Source: Promethearchaeota archaeon
GTDB lineage: Archaea; Asgardarchaeota; Lokiarchaeia; Sigyniarchaeales; SOKP01
Assembly: GCA_019058245.1 (NCBI GenBank)
Contig: JAHPZJ010000013.1
Coordinates: 41,166-105,165, forward strand
DNA: 64,000 bases
Reading direction: 5' to 3'
This document shows positions 4,464-64,000 of this stretch, in pieces (the stretch's first letter is position 1; every line of letters begins with the position of its first letter). The position numbers were made by a program, and so were the translations under genes. A model generated the notes under the pieces. It ran no database searches, was not told the origin of the DNA, and worked only from the letters and a program-made list of their open reading frames with translations.

Positions 4464-4481
4464 ATTATATGGTGTTAATAT

Positions 4482-4913: not shown

Positions 4914-5049
4914 AATTATTTAATTTTATTCATTTTTATTTATATGTATGGAAAGATAAATTCAGTGTCTAATTTCAATGAAAATTTAATGAATAATAAC
5001 GAATTTGTTCAGTAGATTTTACAGTGTCTTGAAAATTCTTTTTTTTATA

Positions 5050-6383: not shown

Positions 6384-7019
6384 AAAATGTTACCTAATTT
6401 AATCTACTATTTTATAATTCACTATGGATTTGTTAATAATATTTCTTGGCATACCTTTTAAACTTTCTCCATTATTGATAAACCATTTGGAAAATAACAC
6501 TAGTTTGATTTGAAATAATAAGAAATGATTTTATAAGAAAAAATAATGATAAAAATATTTTTTTTTGGATGTATAGTTTTTTCATTATCTATAAAAATTA
6601 CTTTTTTCTTGATCAATTTCATAATTCTTAAAGGAATTTCTGTAGGGAATGGATCATGGAATCTTGTCTTATTATCATAAAGAGTCAAAATGAAGGTAAT
6701 CAGCAATATAGGAAAGAAAAAACGCCGATATCAGGCATAATCAGAGAGAAACTTATCGATCATGATCTCGAAGTAAGGAAATTTTGACCTAAACAGACAA
6801 AATGTTCGTAAAGGTACAGAAATGGAGGATGATCTGATTGAATAGGAATAGTCTGACTCGAAAAAAGCTTGGGATTGATCATCTTCAAAGCAAAAAGTGT
6901 AGGATTCTGATCATTTTTTATAAAAATATTTATATAATTACATTTCTTTTATTCTTATTCAACGAAAGAAAAATGTGGAAAACTAACATTTATCAAAAAA
7001 AAATAAAAAGTGTTAAATA

Positions 7020-10100: not shown

Positions 10101-10251
10101 TTTTGAATTAATAGTAATCAATGATTATCATAATCTTAATTTCTTATTTGACATTTGAGTTATGAAATCTAATCAGAAAAAATAAATTATTTCCTTTTTT
10201 TTCCTATTCATCATTAGTTCAAATTAATTAAAGTTCCATTAATCAAAAAAA

Positions 10252-14639: not shown

Positions 14640-14648
14640 GTGATATTC

Positions 14649-15083
14649 ATGTCAAAATCTAAAAATCAAACAAAAAGCAAAGGATTTGAGCCAAATATTT
14701 TGGTTTTTTGCTGCAATTGGTGTAGTTATGCCGGAGCTGATTTAGCAGGTGTTTCAAGATTTCAATATCCTCCAAATATAAGAATTATACGAGTAATGTG
14801 CTCTGGAAGAGTTGATCCCTCCTTCGTCTTAAAAGCATTAAAAAATGGTGCTGATGGTGTTCTTATAAGTGGATGTCATATAGGTGATTGCCATTATATT
14901 ACTGGGAATGAATATACTCGAGAGAGATTTGAACGTTTACATAATATTTTAATCAAACAACTGGGAATAGATCCAAAACGAGTACGATTAGAATGGGTAA
15001 GCGCCTCTGAAGGAAAGAGATTTGCTGAGGTAATTACAGAATTTACAAATCAAATAAAAGAATTGGGTCCCTTCAAAAGATAA
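14649..15083 (+). CDS. mvhD: MvhD/FlpD [2Fe-2S] subunit
   Basis: [28 protein letters not shown]. Start moved to ATG 14649 because GGTGA (14639-14643) lies just upstream and the paralog also begins MSKSK. Confidence 0.95.
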
Positions 15084-38320: not shown

Positions 38321-39370
38321 TTGGTTGCTGTGTCTGATATTTTTGATAAAACAGTCAAAAAAAAACCCAAGGAAGATTTATGTGTTGTATATGTCATGTT
38401 TTTCGATGAAAAGCGTGGTCAGGTACCATTATTAATGTATCCCGATGATCGACTTAGAAGTGATAAAAGATATATGCGTCCAATAAATTTTCATCCAGTT
38501 TGGTTTTTAGAAACTGAAGATCTTGACCATATTGATTTAGAATATAAAGGATATACATTTTTTGGTAAAAAATTTCTGGCAAAATCAAAAAGGCAAAAAA
38601 GGAGAGCAGGATTAGAGGAAGAAACTCCAGAAACGATAGTAATAATAGTCTCAATTCCAGTTGAAATTGATATTTTTGGAGATGAATTAATAAAAAGATT
38701 AACAGAAGAACTGCGAGAAAATTTCGATGATCAATTATCTGAGGTTATAGAAAGTGAAATTGCATCTGAAGCTGTAATAAAAACACCAAAGATTCATGAA
38801 TGTATTTCCAAAGGAACAAAAATTAAGGTTTTTATGAGGGAACTAATTGATAAAACCATTAAAGATTACTTTTCAAAAGCTATTGAAAATAGAGCAGAAT
38901 CTACCTCTCTCAAGACACAAAAAGCAATAGCGTATTTTTCTCTTAAAGGTTTTGAGTTTTCTCCTCTTAGTAGTTTAAAAGGAGATGGTAGTTTTGCAAA
39001 TTTAGAACTCTTTGAAACATCGAAAAAACCAATAGAACTTATTGGACCAAAATCTATTCTATCAATTACACACCTTAATTTTATTGAAAACAGCCAAGAG
39101 CTTGAGATTACTATCCAAAACAATACAGATAAGGATCTAACAAATATGTCTGTTACAATTACTCATGTTAAAGAATTTTTTGAAAAGGTCATAATGACTC
39201 AAAAAGTTGAATTTTGGTTTTCTCTAGAAGAACTCTTATTTGTTTCTCCAATTGTTCCTCATATTAATGAATATTTAGTTTCTATTAAACAAGAAGATGA
39301 TCATGGTAATAGTAATAAAATTCTCACTCATAAAATTGATTTAAAATTAATAAATAAAATATCTAGTTAA
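38321..39370 (+). CDS. Hypothetical protein, longin/uDENN-like N-terminus and Ig-like C-terminus
   Basis: YVMFFDEKRGQVPLLMYP resembles the FDxxxG..YP start of longin/uDENN folds; LEITIQNNTDKDLTNMSVTI is Ig-like. Confidence 0.5.
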   Translation: MVAVSDIFDKTVKKKPKEDLCVVYVMFFDEKRGQVPLLMYPDDRLRSDKRYMRPINFHPVWFLETEDLDHIDLEYKGYTFFGKKFLAKSKRQKRRAGLEEETPETIVIIVSIPVEIDIFGDELIKRLTEELRENFDDQLSEVIESEIASEAVIKTPKIHECISKGTKIKVFMRELIDKTIKDYFSKAIENRAESTSLKTQKAIAYFSLKGFEFSPLSSLKGDGSFANLELFETSKKPIELIGPKSILSITHLNFIENSQELEITIQNNTDKDLTNMSVTITHVKEFFEKVIMTQKVEFWFSLEELLFVSPIVPHINEYLVSIKQEDDHGNSNKILTHKIDLKLINKISS

Positions 39371-47216: not shown

Positions 47217-48092
47217 ATAGCAGAAAAAAAGATAGATATCCTCTTAATTGAAGATAATAAAGCTGATGTACGTCTTATTGAAGAATTTTTGAAAAAATCT
47301 GAAGAATTCAAATTTAATTTAGAATCAAAACCTAGACTTTATGAAGGTATGAATTATCTTAAGTCTAGAGACTTTGATATTATTTTATTAGATTTAACCT
47401 TACCGGATAGTGATAAAGAGAATACTCTAGAAATTGTTTTAAACAATACTACCTCTATTCCTATAATTATTTTAACTGGATTAGATGATAAGGATATAGC
47501 ATTAAAATCTCTTCAAAAAGGTGCTCAAGACTATATACTAAAGGATGAATTAAATCAAGGAAATTTAACAAGAGCTATAATATATGCTATTGAAAGACAT
47601 AAAAGTAAAACTGAAAAGATAATAGAGAGAGCTTTAAAAACGCAATTTGATGAAAAAGATAAAGAAATTCTTAATTATCTACAAGACAATTATAAAATCT
47701 CATATAAAGATTTAAGTAAAAAAGTGAATTTAGCTGCCAGCACTATTCATAATCGAGTACAAAATATGATAAAAGAGGGAATAATAAAGAAATTTGATAC
47801 GTTTGTAGATCCTTTTAAAGTTGGATATACATCTATAGCCATTCTTGGTCTTTCTGTAGATCCGTTGAAATCTGAGAATATTGCTAGAAAACTCTCAAAA
47901 TATGATGAAATACAATTAGTTGCCTCCTCTACGGGAGATCATAATTTATTATTGAAAATTATTGCGAAAAACGAAAAATATCTTTGGAGATTTATAAATG
48001 AAGAAATTAAAACTCTAGATGGTATCCAATCACCAATACATGTTTCAAGCTTTTTAGATATCTTTAAAATGTCTCATAAAATTACCTTTTAA
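47217..48092 (+). CDS. Response regulator: REC domain fused to Lrp/AsnC HTH and RAM domain; apparent ATA start
   Basis: Frame extends 5' of the called TTG to include IDILLIEDN; phospho-Asp LLDLTLPD, ILTG, QDYILK; then FDEKDKEIL..LAASTIHNRV..STGDHNL. GGTGA at 47206-47210 precedes ATA 47217. Confidence 0.85.
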   Translation: MAEKKIDILLIEDNKADVRLIEEFLKKSEEFKFNLESKPRLYEGMNYLKSRDFDIILLDLTLPDSDKENTLEIVLNNTTSIPIIILTGLDDKDIALKSLQKGAQDYILKDELNQGNLTRAIIYAIERHKSKTEKIIERALKTQFDEKDKEILNYLQDNYKISYKDLSKKVNLAASTIHNRVQNMIKEGIIKKFDTFVDPFKVGYTSIAILGLSVDPLKSENIARKLSKYDEIQLVASSTGDHNLLLKIIAKNEKYLWRFINEEIKTLDGIQSPIHVSSFLDIFKMSHKITF

Positions 48093-48207
48093 TATAGAAA
48101 TAAATTGAACAAATTATCAGCTATATATGATTCTTCTAACAATTAAAGATCCTGGATTTTTCCGATGAATTTTTTTATGTTCATTTAACTTTAATTTTAC
48201 TCAAATT

Positions 48208-49263
48208 TTATTCAAAAGCTTGAGGAATTAACATAATGAAATTACTTCCTTTTGAATAATCTCCAGCTACTTTATCCTCAACCCAAATTTTCCCGCTATA
48301 TTTTTTAAGTATTCTTTTAACGATTGATAATCCAATTCCCATACCTTTAGAATACTTATCTTTATGATTTCTTCTCTTAAAAATAATTTCTTTACGTTCA
48401 TCGGGAATTCCAATTCCGTTATCTTTAATTTCGATTTTTAAATAATTTATATCATTTATTTTTTCATTTGAGAGATTTATTTTAATTTCTACTAAAGAGC
48501 TATCATTATATTTCACAGCATTAATAAATAAATTAAAAAATACTTCATATAATAATTCATTTGCATTAATCCAAATGGTTTTATTTGGGATCTCTATATT
48601 GAAAGTTATTTCTTTATTCTGGTAATAATTTTTAATGTTTACAATTGACTCCTCAAGTATTTCTTTTATACTAATTTTTTTTAAATAAAATTGAGAATCT
48701 TCTAGTTTTGTTAGATTTTGTACATTTAAAGTTAATCTTACACCCCTAAGACATTGATCTCTTATTATTTCAATTAATTCATCTTGTTTATAGACCTTAT
48801 TGCCATTTTTTCTTAAAATTGTATAGAGTTCTGTAGAAGATAAAATATTTTGAAAGATATTATTCATATCATGGCTAATTAAATCTCTATAAAAAAGAAT
48901 GTTACGATATGCTTTAGTTAGTTCTTTAGTTTTTGAAATATTTTCACTTAAAGCAGTAACAATAATACCAACAATTATAATCATTATAGCCCTAAGAATT
49001 TGTTCTAAGTTCTGTAAATAATCAATAATTATACCAAAAAAGAAAGGAAATAAAATTAGTGAGAGTGCCAAATATATAGGGATAAATAAACCATACTTTT
49101 TCCACCAAAAACAAGCTAAAATTGTTGGAATATAGAAGAGATGTGAAAAAAAGATGTTAATTTTTAAAATTATTTGAAATAAATAATTCAAAACGGATGA
49201 AATAATTAAAAGTATGATTATAATGGCATACTTTATTTTTTTAGTGTAATTTTTAATCTTCAT
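48208..49263 (-). CDS. Membrane sensor histidine kinase
   Basis: About 4 N-terminal TMs, H box ISHDMNN, N box NLFINAVKY, DNGIGIP, GMGIGLSIV, GSNF. Confidence 0.92.
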   Translation of the reverse strand: MKIKNYTKKIKYAIIIILLIISSVLNYLFQIILKINIFFSHLFYIPTILACFWWKKYGLFIPIYLALSLILFPFFFGIIIDYLQNLEQILRAIMIIIVGIIVTALSENISKTKELTKAYRNILFYRDLISHDMNNIFQNILSSTELYTILRKNGNKVYKQDELIEIIRDQCLRGVRLTLNVQNLTKLEDSQFYLKKISIKEILEESIVNIKNYYQNKEITFNIEIPNKTIWINANELLYEVFFNLFINAVKYNDSSLVEIKINLSNEKINDINYLKIEIKDNGIGIPDERKEIIFKRRNHKDKYSKGMGIGLSIVKRILKKYSGKIWVEDKVAGDYSKGSNFIMLIPQAFE

Positions 49264-49342
49264 CTCATTCCCCCTTAAAAGAGAGATTATTTTCCTTAGT
49301 TTTTCATAAAATTGAATTTATCTGAATTCAAACATTATAAGC

Positions 49343-50644
49343 TTAATGCGTGGCACATGAAATACAAGGATCAAATGCTCTAATTATCATCTGTACTTCT
49401 TTTTCTACTAATTTAATATCACCAGTTTTATCAAATAGTTCTTGAGCATATTTAGTTATCATTTGATTAAGAAGTGGAATATTAAACTCCGTAGCAATGA
49501 ATAGTTTTATTTCATCAATAATGTTGTTTTTATTTATGTGATAATTATGTATTAAAGTTCCTCTTGGTGCTTCAATAACACCAATACCCTCATTCTTTTT
49601 AATAGATTTAAAAGAAGGAAGATACTTTCTAACATTTAATGAAGGTTCTCCCAATATCTGTATACATTTATATGATTCAATATATATTTCCAGTAATCGT
49701 AAAAAATTAATGAATAGTAAATTATTTGTCCATGATTTATTAAAATATTCAAGATATGTATTAATTTTATCAAAATCATACTTTTCAATAATTTTATAAC
49801 GTGAAAAAGGTCCAACTATTACATTTTTTTTATTTTCAAAAAAGAAATCAATACCTCTTAAATTTATCTCTTTATTAAAATATCTTGTATAGTTTTGAGC
49901 TTCAAATTCTATTAGATTTTTGTCTTCTTTAAGGCTTAAAGAACCAGAATATCGATCATAAATACCATGATTATTTTTCGCTAAACAAATAGTATTTGGT
50001 AAATTAAAATCTTCTGGAGGGATTTGATTACCAAATAATTTAATGAAATCTTCTATAATCCATTCTACAATCGTTAAGGCTTTTTGAAGATATTTTTGAG
50101 ATAATAAAATTAATTTTCCAGAAGGAGAATAAATAACACCTCCGGGAACAATTGAAATCAAGTGAACAGACCTACCACCAAAAATCTCATTGATTTCATT
50201 TCCAAATTTAATTAGATCGTATAAATTTGATGTTAATTGAGGATTAAATTTGATTAATTCATAGGGAGATAAAGTATTTTTACTAATATTAAAAATTTTT
50301 AAAAGATCTGGCAAAGTTTGAAAGAAAAAGTTCATTGAATGGGATTTTATTAATTCTGCTGTCATTAATAGGCGTCTTAAATAAATACTTTGTTCTGAAA
50401 TTTCTATATTGTAAATATCTTCTAAAGTTTTACAACTTGCAATTGCTTGAGAAGCATAACATAAACCACATATTCGAGATACAAATTTAGGAATATCAAG
50501 TAGCCTTTTACCTATTAGGAATTTTTCAAATCCCCTATATACGTTAAATTCAAAATTTGCTAATGAAACTTCATCATTTTGAAGCATAATTTTAACTTCT
50601 CCATGTCCTTCAACACGTGTACATACATTAACAATTTTTTGCAA
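49343..50644 (-). CDS. mvhA: [NiFe]-hydrogenase large subunit (group 3-like) with no C-terminal extension
   Basis: TRVEGHG, RGFEKF, SRICGLCYASQ, EAPRGTLIH; ends RAFDPCISCATH-stop. Confidence 0.9.
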   Translation of the reverse strand: MQKIVNVCTRVEGHGEVKIMLQNDEVSLANFEFNVYRGFEKFLIGKRLLDIPKFVSRICGLCYASQAIASCKTLEDIYNIEISEQSIYLRRLLMTAELIKSHSMNFFFQTLPDLLKIFNISKNTLSPYELIKFNPQLTSNLYDLIKFGNEINEIFGGRSVHLISIVPGGVIYSPSGKLILLSQKYLQKALTIVEWIIEDFIKLFGNQIPPEDFNLPNTICLAKNNHGIYDRYSGSLSLKEDKNLIEFEAQNYTRYFNKEINLRGIDFFFENKKNVIVGPFSRYKIIEKYDFDKINTYLEYFNKSWTNNLLFINFLRLLEIYIESYKCIQILGEPSLNVRKYLPSFKSIKKNEGIGVIEAPRGTLIHNYHINKNNIIDEIKLFIATEFNIPLLNQMITKYAQELFDKTGDIKLVEKEVQMIIRAFDPCISCATH

Positions 50645-50649
50645 TAATA

Positions 50650-51408
50650 TTACCTATTAATCTTTGGTTTTGAAAATCGATTATAAATTCCAGTATATTT
50701 TTGCAATTCTTGAGAAAGTTCTATTAAACTCAAAAAATTTACAACATTAGATGTAAAATCTTTTGATACAGGCCCCATGCATCCTTCGCATGGAAGTCCC
50801 ATTTTTATACATTTATGCTCACAACCATCACGAGTTATTGGTCCCAAACATAAAATACCATTATTTAAAAAACATTCAGAGTTTTCTTCACCTAATCTAA
50901 TTTCTTCGGGATTAGGATTAATTTTAGTTATTTTTATATGGGAATTAATTTCTATACTTCCTCTTAATGGACAATTTGCACACATATTTTTTTCGGATAA
51001 AATTATATCTTTATTTCCAACCAAATTGATTAAACAATTTCCAAAAAATTTAGATGGAGGAGGACAACCAGGAATCATACCATCAATTTCAATATGATTA
51101 GATAAAGGCTCTGCTTTCTTTGAATTAGAAAGGCTTAAAATTCCACCAAAGCAAGCACATGTTCCTAATGCAAAAACTCTTTTAGCACGTTTTCTTATTT
51201 TTCTAATAAGATTTATTTGTGTTTCTTCAGAAATACATCCTTCTACTAATGCAATTTCGCATTCTTCTATATCATCTGAATCTAAAATAAATAGAAAATA
51301 GTTTATTTTTATTCTTTCAAGAAATTGGGGGAAAATATCTAAAGATATAAGAGTCGATATACATCCAGTACATGATGTAAGAGAAATTATATTGAATCTA
51401 GGCTTCAT
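50650..51408 (-). CDS. mvhG: [NiFe]-hydrogenase small subunit
   Basis: SCTGC, VEG, GTCACFGG, PGCPP, CANC, CFL..CLGPITRDGC..C..PCEGCMGP. Start moved to ATG 51408, overlapping the upstream stop. Confidence 0.9.
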   Translation of the reverse strand: MKPRFNIISLTSCTGCISTLISLDIFPQFLERIKINYFLFILDSDDIEECEIALVEGCISEETQINLIRKIRKRAKRVFALGTCACFGGILSLSNSKKAEPLSNHIEIDGMIPGCPPPSKFFGNCLINLVGNKDIILSEKNMCANCPLRGSIEINSHIKITKINPNPEEIRLGEENSECFLNNGILCLGPITRDGCEHKCIKMGLPCEGCMGPVSKDFTSNVVNFLSLIELSQELQKYTGIYNRFSKPKINR

Positions 51409-53947
51409 ACTTAATCTCCTCCAATAGGTTATTATACAATTTATTAGCAGTATCAGCAAATTTATTTCCTTCAACAGCATTCAAATGTTTAAGGATTATT
51501 CGATCTTTATATTTTGGATCTATTACATTTTTTAATAGTCTGATTTTGTTTTCTATCTTTTTTACTCCATCTATATATCGACAAGCATCTTGTCTACATC
51601 CAACTATCATAACTCCATCGAAACCAAGTTCAAATGATTTAATAATAAAGTTTGTATCAATACGTCCTGTACAAGGAACTCTTACAATGAAAACATTAGG
51701 AGTATATGAAATCTTTTTTAGTCCAGCATTATCAGCTGCAGCATATCCACATGATGCACAACAGAAGGCAATGATTTTTGGATTTGATCTGAATTTTGAG
51801 AAAATCTTAATTGTCCTTAAAATTTTCTTAGAAGTATCTATATTTAGGTCTATAGCATTAGTAGGACAAATACTAGCACAAGTGCCACCCCCTTTACATT
51901 TGAATTTATCTATACTAATTTTATCCCTCTCTATTGTAATTGCATTATATGGACAAATTTTTAAACATAAACCACATAAACCACATTTATTTTCATCTAT
52001 TTCAATTCCAGTAAATTCTGCTATTAAATAATCCTTAGAAAGTAATGAAATGACTTTTAAAGCAACATTATTAGCTGTTGAAATAGTAGAATTATAATTT
52101 AAAGGACCGAAAATAGTTCCAACACCATAAATTCCGGATGCTAATGTGTCTACACTCATAAATCCGTTATTATCTAATGTAAAATCCATATATTGTCTAA
52201 GATTTTTTAAATCCTCATTTGGGATATATTTTATATTTAATACTATCAAATCGCTTTGAAATTCTATATTATCCGCAATAACATAATTTATATCTTTAGA
52301 AGATTTAATGCTAATTTTATTTGCATAAATAAATTTAGGGTTTGTAGATCTTAACAAAATCTCATCCTTATCCTTTAACCTACTTAAATCATAAAAAACA
52401 TTTACTTCACAATGAGGATTTCTTATTTTAACATCCTCAATATATTTTTCTGCTAAAATTTCAGAAAAATCTGATAGATATTTTGAAGGACCAACTTCTT
52501 GAATTATTGAAATGGAAATTATGGGCTTTTTATCTGATATCTTTACAAGTTTCCCATCAGTTAGGCCATCAGACGATAAAAGACGCTCAAATTCAGGTGA
52601 TGTTATTATATTTTTTTTTGGATTATAATTATATTCTTCTAAATCTTTATAAAAATCAGATCCAATAGCAATAACTTTAGTACCAACTTTTATTTCAATT
52701 CTTTCTTCTTTTTGATCCAAATCTATTGCTTTATTTATGCAAGCACGTTCACAAATCCTACAATTAAGACAATTCTTTAAATCTTCCTCATCTATCAAAG
52801 GAGCATAAGGATAAGAATGTATGAATGGAATATAAATTAATTTTCGATTACTTAAACCAAATTCATATTGATTTGGTTTTTCTATACTACAAACAGAAAT
52901 ACATTGTTTACATCCTGTACATTTTTTTACATCAACATATCTAGGTTTTTTAATCATATTAATTGTGAAATTTCCAACTTCTCCTGTTACGTTTTCGATT
53001 TCTGTATTTGTGAATATTTTTATATTTTTTTCATTAACTAACTCTGCTATTAATTCAGAAATAAAACATATTGAACAATCACCCATATTATGAATTCTGT
53101 GCCATCTAGCTACCTTACCTCCTAAGGTTGGTGATTTTTCAATAAGATATACTTTTATTCCTGCTCGTGCTAAATTTAAAGATAAAGTTATACCAGCAAT
53201 TCCTCCACCTAAAACAGCACAACTTTTCTCAATTTCAACTCTCTTTACTTTTATTTTTTTTTGAAAACTTACACGTTCAACAGCTGCCTCAATTAATAAC
53301 TTCCCTTTTTCTAGAGGAAGTGATAGATTGTTTTGTTCATCATTTGGTTGATGTACCCAACAACATTGTTCTCTAATATTAGCAATTTCAATATTAGTAT
53401 GATCAATAATATCTTCAAAAATTCTTTCAAAAAGATTTTGGTGAGTTTTAGGAGAACAAGCAGCTATAACTATTTTATTTATAAAATTATCTTTTACCCA
53501 ATTACGAATTTTCTCAAAGTTTTTTTGCTGACAAAGGTTTTCAAATACTTTTACCGAAACTACTTTTTTTAATTTATTTACGTAATTTTCAAGTGCTTTT
53601 ATATTAATTACATTTGAAATTTCTGTATTACAATTACAAATAATTACTCCAACACGACTTATTTCGCTTCTCTTTGAATCAAAATACTCGTCAATAAATT
53701 CTCCTGCTAAAATTCTCTTATTAAGATTAATAATTTTTAAAACACGTTTACCATCTTCTGTGAGAAAATATGCTTTATTGTCCTTACCTATTAATGAACC
53801 AATCTTTTTAAGGTGAAAATTTAATTGTCCAGTCGTATCTAAATTGAGTTTTTCCATTAATTCGGTATATGGAATATATCCTTCTTTTTCTAAAAGAAAT
53901 AAAATCTTTCGTCTAAACGGATGAGATAATATTGAATATATATCCAT
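51398..53947 (-). CDS. ArsR-like wHTH fused to a divergent HdrA and MvhD
   Basis: aa ~1-80 LSHPFRRKILFLL..YTELM..TGQLNFHLKKI..YFLTEDG; HdrA GVIICNC..AACSP..NIREQCCWVH, VLGGGIAG, ferredoxin motifs; MvhD FCCASCGYAAAD..VPCTGRID..GCRQDACRY. Confidence 0.9.
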   Translation of the reverse strand: MDIYSILSHPFRRKILFLLEKEGYIPYTELMEKLNLDTTGQLNFHLKKIGSLIGKDNKAYFLTEDGKRVLKIINLNKRILAGEFIDEYFDSKRSEISRVGVIICNCNTEISNVINIKALENYVNKLKKVVSVKVFENLCQQKNFEKIRNWVKDNFINKIVIAACSPKTHQNLFERIFEDIIDHTNIEIANIREQCCWVHQPNDEQNNLSLPLEKGKLLIEAAVERVSFQKKIKVKRVEIEKSCAVLGGGIAGITLSLNLARAGIKVYLIEKSPTLGGKVARWHRIHNMGDCSICFISELIAELVNEKNIKIFTNTEIENVTGEVGNFTINMIKKPRYVDVKKCTGCKQCISVCSIEKPNQYEFGLSNRKLIYIPFIHSYPYAPLIDEEDLKNCLNCRICERACINKAIDLDQKEERIEIKVGTKVIAIGSDFYKDLEEYNYNPKKNIITSPEFERLLSSDGLTDGKLVKISDKKPIISISIIQEVGPSKYLSDFSEILAEKYIEDVKIRNPHCEVNVFYDLSRLKDKDEILLRSTNPKFIYANKISIKSSKDINYVIADNIEFQSDLIVLNIKYIPNEDLKNLRQYMDFTLDNNGFMSVDTLASGIYGVGTIFGPLNYNSTISTANNVALKVISLLSKDYLIAEFTGIEIDENKCGLCGLCLKICPYNAITIERDKISIDKFKCKGGGTCASICPTNAIDLNIDTSKKILRTIKIFSKFRSNPKIIAFCCASCGYAAADNAGLKKISYTPNVFIVRVPCTGRIDTNFIIKSFELGFDGVMIVGCRQDACRYIDGVKKIENKIRLLKNVIDPKYKDRIILKHLNAVEGNKFADTANKLYNNLLEEIKYEA

Positions 53948-54033: not shown

Positions 54034-54056
54034 TGATTAATATTATTGTCAGATTA
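54034..54056. promoter_or_regulatory. Candidate operator TGACAA-N6-TTGTCA, copy 1
   Basis: TGATTA-ATATTA-TTGTCA-GATTA, 87 nt upstream of the wHTH-hdrA start; the 16-mer tattattgtcagatta is identical to 61542-61557. Confidence 0.55.
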
Positions 54057-54453
54057 TTTAAATATGATCTATTTGGTCTATCTGATTATCAATATTGATA
54101 GAGTAATATGTACCAATACTCTATATTATATTATGTGAATGCTAAATATGGTTTCGGAAAAGGATCAAATAGAGATCAGATCAATAAAAATAGTAAATAA
54201 ATAATAAACAAATTTGTCAAAATAATTATAACTTTTTAATTAAAATTCCTTGAATTGTTATTCTCTGGTTGGATAATAGGAACATATTCTTAGAAAAAAT
54301 TATAATTACTTTTATGTAAATCTTCTTAATAAATTAGTATTCAAAATTTCAATAACAAAATGTGGTGATTTCTTTAAAATATTAAGAATAATTTCCTTGA
54401 ATTATAGATATGATACCCATAATAAATTTTGATTAAGATTTCTTAATCTAAAT

Positions 54454-55569
54454 TTAATTCTTAGTTTTTAAGGAAATTAATTTTTTAAACCACTCTAATT
54501 TTTGGTTCTTCCACTGAATAGTCTTGTCAAATGGAACAATAAATTGTTCGATTATATCTTTTGAAAACATGCTATTTATTACTTTTTCACCACGTTCACT
54601 CCGAATTAATATCATAGAATATCCTTCTGGAGCACCAGATGCCCCAACGCTGATATCTGTAAATCGCCCTGTGAATTCATCACACTCAAGGCAATTACTT
54701 CTGACAGCGGGATTTAGAGTTTTTATGTCAATTTCATATTGTTTTTTGTCTTTGGTTTGGAGAAAAAAATTCTTTTTTATCCATGTTTTTTTGATATTGG
54801 TTGGATCAACATTAGTTTCTCTTTCTATAATATCATATAATTGAGAATGATTAAAATTTTCAAAGCAGAAAAGACCAATATTATATTTAATTATGTGAGC
54901 AGGTTTAACATCTAGGAATTTCATTTTACTTATAGCCCTACATTGGCAGGGAGTACCGATAAATGCTATTCTAAGCTGGTCAGTATTAAATATCTCCTTT
55001 TTCTTAAGAATTTCCTGTGGTAATTTATTTATATTTTTTAATGGAAATATTTGAGGAGAAATGGAATATCGTGTACCTGCTGATTTAAATAAATCTTCTT
55101 TATTAAATATAATTTTTGGAATAGGTTCAAAATTATCATTGAACTCTGAAACAATAGCGGCATCAATTTTATGCTTCTCAAAAAGATAAATAAGAATTGC
55201 TGATACTATTCCTCCGTTTTGTCCAATTTCTTTTAATGTTGAATTTGTTGTTTTAGCAGCCAGGATTTTTCTAATATGTCCTATTTTATCGTGAACATAA
55301 TAATTATTATTTAATTCCTTCATTAATGTTTTAGTTTGAGGACATATATAATAACAAATACCACATTTATTGCAATTATCAATACTCTTTTTAGATTTAA
55401 ACCTAGGCGTATTATCAATCATCTCGATAACATCAAAACCTTGACTTTCGCAATAAGCTATACATGCTCCGCATGCACAACATTTTTCATTTTGAATTAT
55501 TTCATTTTCAAGATCCTCAAAAGTGGGTATATTACTTCTTATTACTTTTTGAAATTCTGATTCAGTCAT
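54454..55569 (-). CDS. FrhB/FpoF family F420-binding subunit with N-terminal ferredoxin
   Basis: CCACGACIAYC, CNKCGICYYICP, GQNGGIVS, AGTRY, GTPCQ, IGLFCFENF, CLEC..DISVG. Confidence 0.9.
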   Translation of the reverse strand: MTESEFQKVIRSNIPTFEDLENEIIQNEKCCACGACIAYCESQGFDVIEMIDNTPRFKSKKSIDNCNKCGICYYICPQTKTLMKELNNNYYVHDKIGHIRKILAAKTTNSTLKEIGQNGGIVSAILIYLFEKHKIDAAIVSEFNDNFEPIPKIIFNKEDLFKSAGTRYSISPQIFPLKNINKLPQEILKKKEIFNTDQLRIAFIGTPCQCRAISKMKFLDVKPAHIIKYNIGLFCFENFNHSQLYDIIERETNVDPTNIKKTWIKKNFFLQTKDKKQYEIDIKTLNPAVRSNCLECDEFTGRFTDISVGASGAPEGYSMILIRSERGEKVINSMFSKDIIEQFIVPFDKTIQWKNQKLEWFKKLISLKTKN

Positions 55570-55584
55570 TTTTTTTTCCTCTTT

Positions 55585-56064
55585 TTAATTTTTTTTGATA
55601 TTATAATCTAATTCAATTATTCCAGATTTTTTTGGAATTTTCAATTCTCCTAAATCAATAATTTTATTTGTAAAATCTGTAATTAGCTCAGAAAATTGTT
55701 TTCCTTCACTTGCTGAAATAGAGTATAGTTCAAATCGTTCTTCCTCAATTCCAATATATTTAATTAACTTTTTTAAATGCTCCATTCTATTTTGTGTATA
55801 CTTGAATCCTTTTATATAATGACAGTCACCCATATGACAGCCAATAACTAACACTCCATCTATTCCATTATTAAATGCCCTTAAAACAAACGTGGGCTCA
55901 ACTCTACTAGAACACATAACTCTAATAATCCTAATATTTGGCGGATATTGGAATCTCGAAACCCCCGCTAAGTCAGCTCCCGCATAACTACACCAATTAC
56001 AACAAAATACTAGAATATTAGGTTCATATTCATATTGACTTGCTTTTTTAGTTTTCAACAACAT
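55585..56064 (-). CDS. mvhD: MvhD/FlpD [2Fe-2S] subunit
   Basis: [28 protein letters not shown]. Start moved to ATG 56064 after AGGAGG. Confidence 0.93.
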   Translation of the reverse strand: MLLKTKKASQYEYEPNILVFCCNWCSYAGADLAGVSRFQYPPNIRIIRVMCSSRVEPTFVLRAFNNGIDGVLVIGCHMGDCHYIKGFKYTQNRMEHLKKLIKYIGIEEERFELYSISASEGKQFSELITDFTNKIIDLGELKIPKKSGIIELDYNIKKN

Positions 56065-59000
56065 AATTCCTCCTAAATTTAATAGATTCATATTCTAATA
56101 GATCTATATTGGACATTAAATCAATCATTTTATTAATTTGGAACTTACTAAAATGATTCTGATCAATAGCTCCAACGGAACATTCTGTAACACATGATCC
56201 ACATCCTTTACAAAGTGCTTTAATTATATGCGCTTTTCTTAACTTCATGCTATATAGACCCATTTGTTTATTACTCTCAATTATTTCTATTGCATTGTAT
56301 GGGCAAACTTCAATACATTTACCACATCCAATGCATTTTTCTTCATTTATATGAGAAGTAATGCATTCTGTTTCTATTTCACCTTTCACCATTATTATTG
56401 CGGCTCTCCCTGCTGCGCCATATGCTTGGATGATACTCTCTTGAATCCATTTGGGCCAATGAGCACCACCACAAAGAAAGATTCCTTCTGTAGCAAAATC
56501 TATTGGCCTGAGTTTCGCATCAGCTTCTAAGAAAAATCCATCTTTATTTGTTGTTACTTTTAACATTTTTGATAATCTTTTAGTATCTTTAGTAGGAACG
56601 TTAGGAGTTGCTAATATTAATAAATCGGTATCGTACTCAATATCCGTTTGAGCACTTATATTTTTATACTTAATATGAAAGTGATTATTTATACTATTAA
56701 TTTTGATATCATCAATCGATTGATATCTTTCATAAGTAGCTTTATTTCGAAGCCCTCGACATAGATTTTCTGCATTTAAATCTGAAAATTGAAGTTCTCT
56801 ATATAAAATATGAATTTGCGCATCAGGATTAATTTTCAATAATTTTTCTATATTTTTTAAGGCTACTCCACAACATATATTTGAGCAATATGTTTTTGTA
56901 TAACTTGCGTTATTATATTTATCTTTTCTTTGATCTACGCATAATATTATAGTGGCATCTTTAAACTTAGGAACTTCCTCATCTTTCATTCCAGTCAGTT
57001 CTGTTTGAGTAAATACACGATTGGGATGCTTTTCTGCTAAATCTTTCCATTTGATTGTTTTAATCTGCTTAGTTCCTGTAGCAATTATTATAGTGCCAAC
57101 CTTTATTATTTGTTCTTCAGAATTGTCTTTTGTATTTTTAACTTTTACATGATAATTTCCCACATAACCTTGAACATCAATAATTTCTGTGTTAAATAAA
57201 ATTTTGACATTTGAATTATTTTTTAAATCATCAATTTGCTGCAAAATTTCATTTTTAGTAATAGCTATATAATATAGATCAACAAATTCTAGTGCACTAC
57301 CACCAAGAGTAGCTTTATTGTCGATAAGATACACTTTGAATCCTTGATTTGCTAAATTATGAGCAGCAGTTATACCTGATAGTCCAGCACCGATTACCAT
57401 TGTTGATTTTTCAACTTTGACTTTAATAGTTTCTAATGGTTTTAAATTAATTACTTTGGCTAAATACATTCTAATTAAATCACAAGCCTTTCTAGTAGCC
57501 TTTTCAGGTTCCTTCATATGTACCCAAGAAGCTTGATTTCTTATATTAACTAATTCAAATAAATATGGGTTCAATCCAACCTCTCTGAGAGTATTTTTAA
57601 AAAGTTGTTCATGTGTTCGAGGAGTACAAGATGCAACAATGAATCTATTGAGTTTATGTTTCAAAATTAATTTTTTAATTAGTTCTTGGGAATCAGAACT
57701 ACATGAATACATATTTTCTTCAACATGGACTACATATGGTAATTTAGAGACATACTCTACTACTTTAGGAACATCGACAATACCTCCGATATTTATCCCA
57801 CATTGGCAGACTAATACACCTACGCGAGGCTCATCTTCTAAACTTACTGGTATTTCAGGAGGATACTTAACTTTCTGTATATTTTTAAATCTTAGAGAAT
57901 AAAATTTTTCACTTATTTTAGCGGCGCAAGCAGAACCTTCTGCAACAGCCATTTGAATATCATTAGGTTTACGTGAATTACCAGTTACAAATACATTCTT
58001 TTTCTCAAGTAACTTTATATCTTCTTCACGAATATATCCTAAATGATTCTTATCTAAATTGAGTTGTTTTAAAAATTCATAATAAGATGGAGCTGGAGAC
58101 AAGGCACTAGCTAATACAGCCATGTCAACTTCAAAATTGTCAACTGTACCTCTATTAATATCTTCATAATATAATCTTAATTTTCCATTATCTAAATTTT
58201 CTTTAATATATGAAACGTGACCATTTATATATTTAACATCATATTCATCTTTACTCTTTTCAATAAATTCATTAAAATTTTTACCTTTTGCTCTTATTTC
58301 TGTATTAAAAATATAACATTCTATATTTGGATCATGTTCCTTACATACAATTGCTTCTTTAGCTGAATTCATACAACATATCGCTGAACAATATTTTTTA
58401 CATTCAGGATGATGAAAATCTCGAGATCCTACACATTGAATAAATGCGATTGAATCAGGGTGCTTTTTATCATCTAATCTTAATATTTGCCCTACAGTAG
58501 GTCCATTTGCGGATAATAGACGTTCAAATTGCATATTAGACAAAACATTGGGAGATTCCCCTGCAAAATTTTTGTATACTTCTGGCATTTGCTGACTTGT
58601 TCCTGTAGCAATAACAATGGCTCCTACATTTAGAGTTATTTCTTCTGGTTTTTGAAAAAAATCTATAGCATCCGCGCTACAAACTTTGGCACAAAGTCCA
58701 CATATTTGATGATTTAGATATAAACATCTTGATTCATCAATAAGATATACTGGAGGTACTGATGATGGAAAAGGAATATATACAGCAGCTCGGGTTTTTA
58801 AATTGGTATCAAAATCACTAGGGATTCCTCTAACTGGACAAATATTTTCACAATCACCACATCCCTTACAAATATTTTCGTTTATATATCTTGGTTTTTT
58901 AATAACCGTAATTTTATAATCTCCAGCAGTTCCATCGATTTTTTTAACGTATGAATAAGTTAACAATTCGATATTCGGATCTCTATACACATCAACCATT

Positions 59001-59191
59001 TTTGGTGCTAGGATACATAAACTACAATCAAGCGTAGGGTATATTTTATCTAATTGTGCCATCGTTCCGCCAATAGTTGGTTTAATTTCAACTAAATATA
59101 CCTTAAATCCTAATTTTGTTAAATCTAGGGATGCTTGTATACCAGAAATTCCTCCTCCTATAACCAAAACATCACTCTGGAAATTTGACAT
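56048..59191 (-). CDS. hdrA: HdrA family, long form with two FAD domains
   Basis: VIGGGISG, QLDKIYPTLDCSLC, CVGSR..CSAICC, CQCG..SCTPRTHE, second VIGAGLSG, C-terminal ferredoxin. Confidence 0.95.
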   Translation of the reverse strand: MSNFQSDVLVIGGGISGIQASLDLTKLGFKVYLVEIKPTIGGTMAQLDKIYPTLDCSLCILAPKMVDVYRDPNIELLTYSYVKKIDGTAGDYKITVIKKPRYINENICKGCGDCENICPVRGIPSDFDTNLKTRAAVYIPFPSSVPPVYLIDESRCLYLNHQICGLCAKVCSADAIDFFQKPEEITLNVGAIVIATGTSQQMPEVYKNFAGESPNVLSNMQFERLLSANGPTVGQILRLDDKKHPDSIAFIQCVGSRDFHHPECKKYCSAICCMNSAKEAIVCKEHDPNIECYIFNTEIRAKGKNFNEFIEKSKDEYDVKYINGHVSYIKENLDNGKLRLYYEDINRGTVDNFEVDMAVLASALSPAPSYYEFLKQLNLDKNHLGYIREEDIKLLEKKNVFVTGNSRKPNDIQMAVAEGSACAAKISEKFYSLRFKNIQKVKYPPEIPVSLEDEPRVGVLVCQCGINIGGIVDVPKVVEYVSKLPYVVHVEENMYSCSSDSQELIKKLILKHKLNRFIVASCTPRTHEQLFKNTLREVGLNPYLFELVNIRNQASWVHMKEPEKATRKACDLIRMYLAKVINLKPLETIKVKVEKSTMVIGAGLSGITAAHNLANQGFKVYLIDNKATLGGSALEFVDLYYIAITKNEILQQIDDLKNNSNVKILFNTEIIDVQGYVGNYHVKVKNTKDNSEEQIIKVGTIIIATGTKQIKTIKWKDLAEKHPNRVFTQTELTGMKDEEVPKFKDATIILCVDQRKDKYNNASYTKTYCSNICCGVALKNIEKLLKINPDAQIHILYRELQFSDLNAENLCRGLRNKATYERYQSIDDIKINSINNHFHIKYKNISAQTDIEYDTDLLILATPNVPTKDTKRLSKMLKVTTNKDGFFLEADAKLRPIDFATEGIFLCGGAHWPKWIQESIIQAYGAAGRAAIIMVKGEIETECITSHINEEKCIGCGKCIEVCPYNAIEIIESNKQMGLYSMKLRKAHIIKALCKGCGSCVTECSVGAIDQNHFSKFQINKMIDLMSNIDLLEYESIKFRRNYVVEN

Positions 59192-59233
59192 ATAAAATAG
59201 TTTTTAAAAATTTTTTTTTAATTTTATTTTAAC

Positions 59234-60439
59234 CTATATAATCATTAACAATTTGCCTATAAAACTGGCTAAATCAATTACTTTTATATTACTAGAAAAT
59301 TCATTATGCTCTTTATTGAGAGACAATTCATTTAAATAACAATTAAAATGTGTTAGACATTTAGGACAAGGAACAATTAAATATTCAGCTCCAGTTTCAA
59401 TCGCTTCATTAATACGATTTTGTCTTATATAACGTGTGTATTCACTACAATTTGTAAATGCTGAAACGCCACAACAATTAGCATCATCTTTAATATTTTC
59501 CATTTCAATTAATTTTACACCTGGAATTTTTTTTATTAATTCTCTAGGAGTATCATACAATTTTCCTCCTAGGCGTCCTAATCGGCAAGAATCGTGATAT
59601 GTTACATTAATCTTAGAATTATGCGTATATTTTATATTTTCAAGAATATTTTCTCTAAGAAAGAATTCGGAAAAATGTAAAACTTCAAAATCAAAGTCTT
59701 TAATAATTTTCGGATAATCATATTTCCATGTTCTATATCCTTCAGCGCATCCAACAATAATAGTCTTTACTCCTGCATTTTTATAAAGTTGAGTATTATA
59801 TTCAGCAAGCTTTCTAAATGTTTCATTATCGCCTCTACCCCATAAAATATCATGTCCACAACATTTTTCATCTAGAACTACTGGATTTATACCATTTTCA
59901 TTAAGTAAATTTATAATTGTTACAGGAATATCCGTATAATTGATATCAAAATTATAGAAAAGATCATCCATTATAGATAAGCATCCAACAAAATATGCAA
60001 TTTCGCCTGAAGTTGTAGTTTTTAATTCATTTTTCTCTAGAAAATCTAACTTATTTGGACTTGAAGGATTATGTGCCATAATTTTAGAAATCAAAGTGAA
60101 AATATCATTATGAGTTTCGCATTTAACAATCTTTTTTATTTCTGAATTGTTTTTATTTGAAATTTTTCTTAATTCTAAAATCAATTCTGGTATTCTCACA
60201 CCCTGATTTTCACGTGTCATAGGACAGTAAATTGAACATTGTCCACAAGTTAGACAATTCCAAATATTATTTTTTGCTATAACTTCTTCCATTGTAAAAA
60301 AGTTTAAATCTGAAACTAAATCTTTAGGATAAAAGACGTCTAAGTGGGAAAGTGGACATACATTAACACAACGATTACAACTATAGCAATAATTAGTAAA
60401 AGAACTTATATTTTTAATTATTTCTTGAGAATCTAACAC
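59234..60439 (-). CDS. hdrD: HdrD-like Fe-S oxidoreductase (2x[4Fe-4S] plus two CCG domains)
   Basis: CYSCNRCVNVCP, CLTCGQCSIYCP, FVGC..CCGH..GCAEG, YHDSC..CCGV..PCPKC. Confidence 0.85.
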   Translation of the reverse strand: MLDSQEIIKNISSFTNYCYSCNRCVNVCPLSHLDVFYPKDLVSDLNFFTMEEVIAKNNIWNCLTCGQCSIYCPMTRENQGVRIPELILELRKISNKNNSEIKKIVKCETHNDIFTLISKIMAHNPSSPNKLDFLEKNELKTTTSGEIAYFVGCLSIMDDLFYNFDINYTDIPVTIINLLNENGINPVVLDEKCCGHDILWGRGDNETFRKLAEYNTQLYKNAGVKTIIVGCAEGYRTWKYDYPKIIKDFDFEVLHFSEFFLRENILENIKYTHNSKINVTYHDSCRLGRLGGKLYDTPRELIKKIPGVKLIEMENIKDDANCCGVSAFTNCSEYTRYIRQNRINEAIETGAEYLIVPCPKCLTHFNCYLNELSLNKEHNEFSSNIKVIDLASFIGKLLMII

Positions 60440-61534: not shown

Positions 61535-61557
61535 TGACAACTATTATTGTCAGATTA
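61535..61557. promoter_or_regulatory. Candidate operator TGACAA-N6-TTGTCA, copy 2 (perfect)
   Basis: TGACAA-CTATTA-TTGTCA-GATTA about 160 nt upstream of the operon at 61712. Confidence 0.55.
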
Positions 61558-61711: not shown

Positions 61712-62338
61712 ATGATTAAAATGGAAATATTAGAATTAAAGCCAATAAAGAATAAAAAAATTGTTGTGTATATGTCTTCTAAAGAAAGTGCTAAATATTT
61801 CCAAAATGAAGAACATTCAAAACTAATTGAATTCTTAAAAAAGAATAATATTGACTTTGTTACTGTAGACTTTCAAGTGGATATGAAAGAATTTGGTAAA
61901 ACTCAATTCGCAAAAATATTGAATGAATTAAAAATTCCATATTTTCAAGTAGATATTCCTGATTATGCTATGGGATATTTATATCAAGAAATACTTGAGA
62001 AACAAGAGTTCCAAAATGAATTATTTGAAGAATATGAAAGTATGGAGGATAAGGATTCATATAAGGGTTTGAGTTTAAAAAATTGGATTGATTTATTAAC
62101 AGAAGAAATTCAAGAAAGAGAAATATTTCTTAGTTTAAAGTTAAGACCTCAATGGATTGTTAAGAAAATGCTAGATTTAGCATCATCTTTTGAAAAAGAT
62201 TTAGTTTTTTTTGTTCATTTTGTTCAAGAAGATATATGTGAAGACATTTGTCCACAAATAGTTGAAAATTTAAGAGAATTAGGAATAAAAGTAATATCCT
62301 ATAATAAAAAACATACTATACAAAAAGTTATATTTTAA
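61712..62338 (+). CDS. Hypothetical protein, probable distant paralog of 62364..63092
   Basis: Shared pattern ELKP.KNKK, IP..VD/ADI...A..YL, KLRPQWIVKKML vs KVREAWMMMKIL. Start may be ATG 61721. Confidence 0.75.
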   Translation: MIKMEILELKPIKNKKIVVYMSSKESAKYFQNEEHSKLIEFLKKNNIDFVTVDFQVDMKEFGKTQFAKILNELKIPYFQVDIPDYAMGYLYQEILEKQEFQNELFEEYESMEDKDSYKGLSLKNWIDLLTEEIQEREIFLSLKLRPQWIVKKMLDLASSFEKDLVFFVHFVQEDICEDICPQIVENLRELGIKVISYNKKHTIQKVIF

Positions 62339-62363
62339 TTAAAAAAAGGAGGGGGTTAAAAAA

Positions 62364-63092
62364 ATGCCAGAAGTATTAGAATTAAAACCTTTAAAAAATA
62401 AAAAGCTAAAATTGGTATTGATAGAAAGCGAATTTCCTATCGATTGGTGGTTTGACGTTCCTAAGACTTTAAAGGAAGATCTTTTTTGGAATCTTCGATT
62501 AATTTCTAAGGAATATATTCAATTAATTGATTCGTTAATTGAAAAATATAAGCCCAAAATTGCGTTGGAAGAAAGACCAAATTTTTGGAATACTACAAAT
62601 AATTCAGAGGATCCTTTAAAAAAGTTATTTCAAATGCGAAATATACCATTTGACTACGCTGATATTTCAGAAAATGCTGAATTATATCTATCATCCGCTT
62701 TAGAAGAGCATAGAACAATGATCCAGCATCTTGAGAGAAGGATTAAGGAAGTTATGAAGAGTAGTGGAGGTATTCCTAATAATGACGATACTTTTAATCG
62801 AATTGTATTATGGAAGGATTATTTACAACAAGATTATAAATTTCAAGAAGATGAAGTAAGATACAAAGTTCGAGAAGCATGGATGATGATGAAAATTTTA
62901 AATCTTGCCAAAAAAATAGAAGCAACTAATTTCAAAGCTATGTTTATTTGTGATATTAGCCACTTCAATGGTCTTGAAAAACTTTCAGAAGAATTAGGTA
63001 TTGAAGTCGAACAAGTAAGAATAAAAAGGACAATTAAAACTGAAGATGTTAAGGAAATATTTGAAAAAGATTTAGAAGTTGAAATTTCTTAA
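62364..63092 (+). CDS. Hypothetical protein, possibly TraB/ChaN-like fold
   Basis: Strong RBS ggagggg; KYKPKIALEE and REAWM..AMFICDISHFNGL loosely resemble the TraB/Tiki/ChaN pattern. Confidence 0.7.
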   Translation: MPEVLELKPLKNKKLKLVLIESEFPIDWWFDVPKTLKEDLFWNLRLISKEYIQLIDSLIEKYKPKIALEERPNFWNTTNNSEDPLKKLFQMRNIPFDYADISENAELYLSSALEEHRTMIQHLERRIKEVMKSSGGIPNNDDTFNRIVLWKDYLQQDYKFQEDEVRYKVREAWMMMKILNLAKKIEATNFKAMFICDISHFNGLEKLSEELGIEVEQVRIKRTIKTEDVKEIFEKDLEVEIS

Positions 63093-63136
63093 ATTATTAA
63101 TTTTATTTTTAGATATAAAAAAAAGGGTTGATAAAA

Positions 63137-64000
63137 ATGGTTGAAAGAGAGGTTGAAAGTATTTTAGGAAGAAAATCAATAATAGAATTAACACCTATTA
63201 TCATTAAAAAGAAAGATACAATGGATAAAATTTGTTATTTCTTTGATACTGATGATAATGCGTCTCCTTTTGATATTAATATGGCATATGATGCAGGATT
63301 TGATATTGTTATACCTATCAGTAAAATGAAAGCCGAATACGTACCAAAATTAATACAAGATGCTATCTTTTCTCGTAAACCTAATGCACCCACAACTTTT
63401 TTTATTGGAGGTTCTGATGTTAAGGAAGGTGAGAAGATAGCAAAAGCAGCAAAAAAATCCTTAGTCCCTCCTTTTGAATGTCCTATTATAATTGATCCCC
63501 GAGGATCTCATACTACAGCTTCCGCTGTAGTTGCAATGTCTTTGGATATAGCTAATAGAAAACATGGAATTAAGAATTTAAAGGGTAAAAAAGTAGTTAT
63601 ATTTGGAGCGGGGCCAGTTGGTAGAATAGCAGCGATTTTAGCTTCAAAAATTGGATGTAATACGTTTTTAGTGGAAACATGGGATAAATCTAATGAGGAT
63701 TTTATAAAAAAATTAGCAAAAGACCTCACTCAAGAAGCAGGAGAAGGAGCAACAGAAATTTCTGGTCTTTTTGCTCCTTTAATTAAACAAAGATTTGATA
63801 TTGTAAAGGATGCTGATGTTATATGGTCTTTAGCAGCTGCAGGTGTTGAAATTCTAACTCAAGAATGGATGGAAAAGTTGCCAGGTAAAAAAATAGTTGT
63901 AGATATTAATTTGGTGCCACCATATGGTATTGAAGGTCTTAAGCCAAAACATAAGAATGATGAGATCTATCCTGGGATTTTTGGAATTGGGGCATTAGCT
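63137..64000 (+). CDS. mtd: NAD(P)-dependent methylene-H4MPT/H4F dehydrogenase (MtdA/B/C family), runs off the window
   Basis: Open from ATG 63137 to the window end: FDTDDNASPFDINMAYDAG, QDAIFSR, FIGG, PPFE..DPRGSHTTA, FGAGPVG, AAAGV, DINLVPPYGIEG, GIGALA. Confidence 0.88.
   Translation, partial: MVEREVESILGRKSIIELTPIIIKKKDTMDKICYFFDTDDNASPFDINMAYDAGFDIVIPISKMKAEYVPKLIQDAIFSRKPNAPTTFFIGGSDVKEGEKIAKAAKKSLVPPFECPIIIDPRGSHTTASAVVAMSLDIANRKHGIKNLKGKKVVIFGAGPVGRIAAILASKIGCNTFLVETWDKSNEDFIKKLAKDLTQEAGEGATEISGLFAPLIKQRFDIVKDADVIWSLAAAGVEILTQEWMEKLPGKKIVVDINLVPPYGIEGLKPKHKNDEIYPGIFGIGALA

Follow-up and report, generated by a model that had tools for sequence, protein, structure and literature searches.

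Why should the flavoprotein of a hydrogenase complex carry a DNA-binding domain? The question is raised by a minus-strand gene run on contig JAHPZJ010000013.1 of a Promethearchaeota archaeon (Lokiarchaeia; assembly GCA_019058245.1; a genome of 3.09 Mb, 76% complete), in which a winged helix-turn-helix (wHTH), an HdrA body and an MvhD domain are fused in one polypeptide and are followed by the genes of the small and large subunits of a [NiFe] hydrogenase, mvhG and mvhA. The window analysed here is the surrounding stretch of 64,000 nucleotides (nt; contig positions 41166-105165). The original prediction had described a run wHTH-hdrA-mvhD > mvhG > mvhA > histidine kinase, converging on a REC-Lrp regulator, as an H2/redox-sensing system. 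All five open reading frames were found in this order and on these strands, and the run itself indeed lacks hdrBC, hdrD and a maturation protease; an hdrD is located 5 kb upstream, and hdrB, the protease HycI and HypD are encoded elsewhere in the genome. The conserved unit consists of three genes, namely the fusion, mvhG and mvhA, and the evidence on balance favours the view that their products form a one-component transcription factor complex, presumably a repressor, which responds to H2 or redox state. Unless stated otherwise, HdrA, MvhG and MvhA denote the proteins of this unit.

Elsewhere in the genus, 15 genomes encode a full-length fusion with 74-91% identity, and in another family the identity is 53-54%. 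A protein search listed 120 homologs, nearly all of which comprise about 850 amino acids (aa) and contain DUF7347 and FlpD domains; the closest ones bear the labels Promethearchaeota or Lokiarchaeota. Of 80 loci with GTDB names, 66 have room for both hydrogenase genes behind the fusion, and 65 of these contain mvhG and mvhA there. The three-gene unit spans Loki-, Hel-, Hermod- and Freya/Jordarchaeia and is also present in one Bathyarchaeia assembly. An assembly chimera can therefore be ruled out, since the unit is intact in nearly every locus and spread over several lineages. Furthermore, the fusion was not found in 30 genomes lacking this type of MvhA; as the three genes stay together and are missing together, they delimit the unit. 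The search for the wHTH-HdrA-MvhD architecture and its synteny with mvhGA, which had been proposed as a check, thus yielded a conserved arrangement. Within the unit, the true start of mvhG is the ATG at 51408, which results in an 11-nt overlap with the fusion stop, and mvhA starts 5 nt past mvhG and encodes the terminus DPCISCATH directly before its stop codon.

Several observations were made in the neighbourhood of the unit. A 349-aa protein without a Pfam match (38321-39370) has homologs directly after mvhA in 19 of 64 loci and is a possible accessory gene of the unit, which lies 10 kb away in the window. At three Bathyarchaeia-like loci (L106, L108 and L109), DUF2096 genes are oriented divergently from the unit, which is flanked by genes of a membrane-bound hydrogenase; at L108, hdrC/hdrB-like genes accompany the DUF2096 genes. 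Two records titled Nanopelagicaceae and Deferrimicrobium (L168 and L181) contain a Loki-type unit with 68-70% identity and are probably mislabelled or misbinned.

The fusion starts with an ArsR-like winged helix (residues 2-73; DUF7347, E 7e-10), which is connected by a low-confidence linker (residues 75-96) to the domain of the shuttle cluster HA3. This domain is followed by a flavin adenine dinucleotide (FAD) domain without the ligands of the HA4 cluster, two ferredoxin domains and the MvhD [2Fe-2S] domain (FlpD/MvhD profile at 725-841, E 2e-33); the HdrA2 model covers residues 98-841. The winged helix matches PF24038 above the cut-off, its best solved match over the first 85 residues is the ArsR-type repressor 1Y0U, and its model shows three helices, a wing and a C-helix at a predicted local distance difference test score (pLDDT) of 74-86. 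Four residues of the predicted recognition helix (T39, G40, N43 and H45) differ in the four other DUF7347 proteins of the genome. The full-length AlphaFold model of the fusion reached a pLDDT of 67 and a predicted template modelling score (pTM) of 0.48, at which the domains are visible and their packing is not usable, and a complex prediction with two copies of the wHTH scored 0.36 against a mark of 0.42.

The best solved-structure matches of the fusion body are methanogen HdrA and MvhD, and most of the cofactor sites have been retained. The GxGxxG motif is intact, and the residues by which an HdrA-type FAD site is recognised are present: Lys501, which corresponds to Lys409 of 5ODC, a residue touching N5 of FAD, is found in all 126 homologs and Glu452 in 123 of them. 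The Cys291/Cys294 pair and both ferredoxin domains are invariant or nearly so, and the [2Fe-2S] ligands of MvhD (Cys730, 733, 759, 784 and 789) are invariant in the same set. The motif CxGSR...CSxxCC, which we take from 5ODC to hold the HA4 ligands, reads EVGP...LSDFSE in the window; it is lost in all 118 Loki/Hel homologs and retained in eight earlier-branching ones. HA4 is the cluster that hands the high-potential electron toward HdrB (PMC13580544). Since its motif is gone, the Loki form of the fusion is predicted to be unable to bifurcate electrons in the known way, and this loss of the route to HdrBC in Loki/Hel lends support to the sensor proposed in the original prediction. HA4 loss and the missing C-terminal tail of MvhA described below had to be rejected as traits defining the whole family, since they are confined to the Loki/Hel branch (HA4 loss also occurs in Freya/Jord). 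In the window, Cys687 of the C-terminal ferredoxin motif, a cysteine in 125 of 126 homologs, is replaced by glycine (51887-51889) through a one-base difference within a stretch of G residues, which is either a private or recent mutation or an assembly error.

In Loki/Hel, MvhA keeps the four cysteines, the catalytic Glu12, the canopy Arg361 and the terminal histidine. The large subunits of the unit and three further proteins form one clade (Shimodaira-Hasegawa-like approximate likelihood ratio test 99), which is set apart from the VhuA of the genome, canonical MvhA, HoxH and HoxC. The clade groups with group 3, as do its best solved matches, and does not belong to group 2b; with respect to group 3c, it forms a separate, well-supported clade within group 3 in a quick tree with few named references. 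Both trees were quick searches without bootstrap, and the large-subunit tree was midpoint-rooted. The L1 histidine is replaced by Gln66 in MvhA: all 54 Loki/Hel members have glutamine and all 18 basal members histidine, and glutamine does not occur in any of the 121 further group 3 representatives compared. Gln66 aligns with the L1 glutamine of Cupriavidus necator HoxC, a residue described as a hallmark of regulatory hydrogenases (PMC5665086). In addition, 54 of 65 complete large subunits, each of them belonging to the Loki/Hel type, end without a C-terminal tail, and the others have one of 5-13 residues; the tail is missing from MvhA although the genome has a protease, and HoxC is likewise tailless. 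A HoxB-like, kinase-binding C-terminal extension was not found in MvhG. The claim of a sensor-like group 3 hydrogenase could thus be supported: the enzyme belongs to a group 3 lineage of its own, and it shows the glutamine and the missing tail that are typical of sensors.

Compared with five relatives, VhuA shows identities of 98, 89, 89, 87 and 83%, and MvhA of 86, 70, 69, 67 and 63%, which corresponds to a roughly threefold faster divergence of MvhA than of the metabolic enzyme. These lower identities point to relaxed constraint on MvhA. Metabolism and maturation are covered elsewhere, because the genome encodes HycI and HypD as well as a selenocysteine VhuGAU enzyme with a processed tail, the operon of which is distinct from the unit and adjoins hdrB. 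The selenocysteine VhuU peptide of this operon (L042:11900-12130, approximately 323.9-324.1 kb) reads DCULSCAAH, with cysteine for the usual proline, has a processed tail and follows a split VhuA. Basal large subunits without the catalytic glutamate or the terminal histidine occur at L120-L122, L132, L105 and L108, as if catalysis were decaying independently in different basal branches.

From the upstream regions of relatives, an 18-bp palindrome, TGAYAA-N6-TTRTCA, was derived as candidate operator; the pattern TGAY-N10-RTCA matched 27 times in these regions and other spacings 0-5 times. The matrix was built without sites of the analysed genome, and the second predicted operator of the window lies outside its training set. 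The two stretches (at 54034 and 61535) for which electrophoretic mobility shift assays had been suggested turned out to hold the top two matches of the 3.09-Mb genome; they are its only strong ones, and both are local. The first is located 3 bp downstream of the TATA-like box of the unit. As background, 22 of 2670 promoters of the genome reach at least 12 bits. In a held-out test, a site was present less than 300 bp from the fusion in 20 of 25 loci (p<0.05 versus shuffles), with at least 11 bits in 18 of these. Related genomes are not independent samples, and the weight of the operator evidence is therefore carried by the cross-phylum cases: in Freyarchaeia, and likewise in a member with only 39% identity, a near-perfect copy is found 70 bp ahead of the fusion, and an mtd fusion downstream of mvhA has its own copy in 11/11 loci labelled Hermod or Thor. 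In whole genomes, the strict pattern gave 86 raw versus 45 control matches in 32 genomes with the unit, and 27 versus 19 in 25 genomes without it, a weak contrast that is consistent with a small local regulon.

Two conserved targets are predicted. One is the unit itself, and the other is an operon in which the gene of an Mpt_N-type methylene-tetrahydromethanopterin (H4MPT) dehydrogenase (mtd) is accompanied by genes of one or two uncharacterised proteins that are paralogs of each other; this operon diverges from the fusion in 34 of 79 loci and comes immediately after the unit in 10 of 64. The two paralogs (208 and 242 aa; 61712-63092) share an N-terminal MEVLELKP-type motif with the domain that is fused to Mtd in relatives. 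Of 30 genomes in which the unit is missing, 29 yielded no close ortholog of the 208-aa protein. The 242-aa protein had no Pfam or Foldseek match; ChaN/HopBA1 (Z 7.7-8.0) and TraB (0.83), obtained with a model of pLDDT 84, are leads only. In this genus, the promoter of the unit also serves frhB and a divergent selenocysteine hdrA; compared with its nearest relative, the window has lost both genes through two deletions of approximately 2.1 and 1.2 kb and has kept the promoter. In relatives, a distal operator faces this selenocysteine hdrA at about 168 bp from the proximal copy. As targets, the neighbouring mtd and hdr/F420 operons had originally been named: the operator at 61535 agrees with the former, and it is 1.1 kb from hdrD, whereas no strong site was found in the window for the hdrD-hdrA-mvhD-frhB operon, for which a few relatives have sites of 14-16 bits. 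The coordinates of all features are listed in Table 1.

Table 1. Features of the locus, with positions given in the window
Feature	Position	Strand	Description
wHTH-HdrA-MvhD fusion	51398..53947	-	849 aa in one frame; profile matches
Winged-helix domain (DUF7347) of the fusion	53729..53944	-	T39, G40, N43 and H45 invariant in 126/126 homologs
MvhG small subunit	50650..51408	-	252 aa; ligands for three Fe-S clusters
MvhA [NiFe] large subunit	49343..50644	-	433 aa; four Cys, Glu12 and Arg361 kept; Gln66; no C-terminal extension
Predicted operator 1	54034..54051	.	TGATTAATATTATTGTCA; 18.3 bits, second-best genome-wide; 87 bp upstream of the fusion
TATA-like box of the unit	54055..54062	-	TTTAAATA; TTTATATA in relatives; putative promoter element
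Decayed distal operator	54202..54219	.	13.0 bits; intact in relatives
Predicted operator 2	61535..61552	.	TGACAACTATTATTGTCA; 20.6 bits, best genome-wide; 177 bp upstream of the mtd operon
Uncharacterised 208-aa protein, predicted target	61712..62338	+	Paralog of the next gene
Uncharacterised 242-aa protein, predicted target	62364..63092	+	Same domain fused to Mtd in many relatives
Mpt_N-type (MtdA/B-like) methylene-H4MPT dehydrogenase, predicted target	63128..64000	+	Runs off the window
Membrane histidine kinase	48208..49263	-	Neighbour outside the conserved unit; three predicted transmembrane helices, H-box, HATPase
REC-Lrp regulator	47217..48092	+	Neighbour outside the conserved unit; 291 aa from an ATA start

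At seven loci, an operator-like site of 14-20 bits is found 50-150 bp past the 3' end of the CDC48 gene that closes the mtd operon (L079:3561, L084:12031, L088:2062, L089:3793, L090:3638, L091:3405 and L093:16358), and at L089 the site is approached by a convergent F420-dependent mtd. Looping might account for such a site, as might an antisense promoter. In two other regions of the window (145-15083 and 54454-60439), large HdrA-like genes are duplicated and clustered with hdrD-, mvhD- and frhB-like partners; the genome has many HdrA paralogs, some of them with an in-frame TGA.

How could such a unit work? As the complex carries a wHTH and the palindrome is found both at its own promoter and at an operon of C1 metabolism, the unit probably switches genes directly in response to H2 or redox state. 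MvhA and MvhG would dock on HdrA via MvhD, as in the solved Mvh-Hdr complexes, and would oxidise H2, with the [2Fe-2S] cluster of the fused MvhD domain relaying the electrons to the Fe-S chain and FAD of HdrA. In the Loki/Hel form, these electrons would have no high-potential exit, since HA4 is gone and no hdrBC is co-encoded, and the redox state of the flavoprotein could report H2 pressure. HdrA is expected to form a dimer with its N-terminal domain on a mobile arm, to which the wHTH would be tethered by the linker of about 20 residues; a dimer with two wHTHs held in this way should be able to bind the 18-bp palindrome, and a redox-coupled movement of the arms, for which different states have been described (PMC13580544), might alter their spacing. 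The complex would repress its own operon and the mtd operon, in relatives also the divergent selenocysteine hdrA and frhB; repression is the most likely mode because the operator is placed just behind the TATA box. The direction of the switch is a guess by analogy with PutA, which very slightly favours release of DNA upon reduction.

A number of observations weigh against a sensor of this kind. The gas channel of HoxC contains a bulky pair, Ile62 and Phe110; in MvhA, Phe110 is replaced by Gln109, and Leu61 occupies the position of Ile62. Moreover, the L1 glutamine itself seems to be uninvolved in sensing (PMC5665086). The sensor traits are not family-wide, because earlier-branching members retain the histidine, a short tail and the HA4 motif, and the unit of one such member faces hdrC/hdrB-like genes. 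Finally, frhB is located directly upstream of the unit in 18 of 79 loci, where it is co-transcribed and could possibly provide an exit for electrons. The main rival is a trigger enzyme, an active, non-bifurcating H2:ferredoxin or H2:F420 oxidoreductase that serves flux first and autoregulates via its wHTH in the manner of PutA. The catalytic residues of MvhA are all kept in Loki/Hel, the ferredoxin domains and the FAD site are intact, and the basal members resemble ordinary processed enzymes. However, MvhA diverges faster than VhuA, it has gained the glutamine and lost its tail convergently with HoxC, and the catalytic glutamate is lost in 5-6 of 18 basal members; most loci, including the window, are without frhB, and a canonical Vhu-Hdr system is encoded elsewhere in the genome. 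For the unit as a whole, a trigger enzyme is hence rather unlikely, though a serious contender; it may well apply to those basal members which keep the histidine, the tail and HA4. A selenium-free backup of the Vhu enzyme was rejected, as it leaves the wHTH, the operator and the loss of HA4 unaccounted for. A DNA-binding sensor of a signal other than H2, such as the F420H2/ferredoxin pool, oxygen damage or the supply of nickel, Fe-S or selenium read through cofactor loading, would fit the selenocysteine hdrA as divergent target in many relatives, electrons that could come in from ferredoxin or FrhB, and the decayed active-site motifs of some basal large subunits. Such a sensor is nevertheless improbable, given that the hydrogenase genes stay with the fusion in nearly all loci and that the four cysteines, the glutamate, the arginine and the C-terminal histidine are intact in Loki/Hel.

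Two further alternatives concern the output. The palindrome might belong to another regulator, with the wHTH being a structural or vestigial appendage: G057, a genome of 99% completeness in 320 contigs, has operator sites and no detected unit, and 5-6 of the 25 held-out loci, notably Sigynarchaeota-type ones and also two Hel loci, yielded a weak operator or none; both findings also count against the direct switch favoured here. This explanation is scarcely credible, however, in view of the invariant recognition-helix residues, which are different in the other DUF7347 proteins of the genome, of a palindrome that travels with the fusion across phyla, and of only two strong genome-wide sites, both of them local. 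The hydrogenase might, in addition, use the neighbouring kinase to pass a signal to REC-Lrp, in the way that HoxJ links HoxBC to HoxA, and the kinase and REC-Lrp had indeed been counted as part of the system. The kinase gene is co-oriented, has a ribosome-binding site of its own and begins 79 nt behind mvhA in the window, a position that recurs in a few relatives; REC-Lrp often lies within 5-30 kb of the unit in this genus. Yet synteny, architecture and co-occurrence did not bear this out. A kinase directly follows mvhA in 4 of 64 loci and is an ortholog of the window's kinase in only two; it is a membrane protein without a PAS match and, with 17 tblastn matches in the genome, one of many paralogs. 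In relatives, REC-Lrp lies next to a divergent kinase of its own. Of 25 genomes that lack the unit, 5 possess REC-Lrp, and the search did not detect it in many unit-bearing genomes. As a kinase seldom follows, has many paralogs and lacks PAS, and as REC-Lrp has its own kinase and does not track the unit, a two-component link is unsupported; given also that MvhG is without the kinase-binding extension of HoxB, this route is very improbable. The kinase and REC-Lrp are bystanders. REC-Lrp appears to start with the ATA at 47217 (47217-47219), in agreement with the coordinate given earlier, behind a conserved GGTGA ribosome-binding site; the arrangement is seen in four genomes, including L023, L028 and L029, and standard gene callers would drop the first strand of the REC domain.

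The characterised systems share individual features with the unit. The regulatory HoxBC-HoxJ-HoxA system of C. necator (group 2b; HupUV-HupT-HupR elsewhere) likewise ties a cytoplasmic [NiFe] enzyme to transcription, with the L1 histidine changed to glutamine and a large subunit that ends at its last histidine. In contrast, the archaeal unit has a group 3 large subunit far from HoxC in the tree, no conserved kinase, an output domain inside the enzyme complex and no channel Phe110; by its clade, the kinase and the channel, it is not a member of group 2b. With MvhAGD-HdrABC of methanogens (group 3c; PDB 5ODC, 8RVU and 9SW2), it shares the HdrA and MvhD folds, most cofactor ligands, the MvhG/MvhA-like partners and the order hdrA-mvhD > mvhG > mvhA, which also occurs without the wHTH in the relative L092. 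Unlike this complex, it possesses an N-terminal wHTH, has lost the HA4 ligands in Loki/Hel, contains no hdrBC, has its xKTFPT stretch replaced and has a large subunit in a separate, faster-evolving clade; with regard to HA4 and HdrBC, it is not a bifurcating complex. PutA of enteric bacteria is also a flavoenzyme fused to a DNA-binding domain, but it uses a ribbon-helix-helix and a proline/membrane switch, whereas the unit combines a winged helix with a [NiFe]/Fe-S wire. As a flavoenzyme that represses its own locus (PMC6978683), PutA is the nearest precedent in design, although the proteins are unrelated. New group 3 subgroups of [NiFe] hydrogenases, 3e-3l, were defined from Asgard genomes by Appler et al. 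(bioRxiv 10.1101/2024.07.04.601786), and the MvhA clade may be one of them; the accessible part of that text contains no description of the subgroups, DNA-binding partner or sensory role. Searches of the full-text literature outside subscription journals turned up no description of this fusion, nor of any H2-sensing transcription factor in archaea. The parts are all known; the wiring is new.

H2-dependent control of mtd, hmd and frh is known in methanogens, and we know of no sensor behind it; to our knowledge, the characterised [NiFe] sensors act through a kinase. On a slightly better than even estimate, the unit is a dedicated archaeal H2 sensor that would join a group 3 [NiFe] hydrogenase and a disarmed bifurcating flavoprotein in one DNA-binding complex; H2 would then directly control transcription of a small C1/redox regulon without kinase or second messenger. 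The family would preserve the steps by which an ordinary processed enzyme with histidine, tail and HA4 became a sensor and independently acquired the hallmarks of the bacterial group 2b sensors. Natural variants with and without HA4, tail and glutamine provide a ready comparison series, and the unit comes with a predicted operator and predicted targets. If true, a one-component H2 sensor was made from the Mvh-Hdr bifurcation machine, in a group whose exchange of H2 with partner organisms plays a central part in models of how eukaryotes arose.

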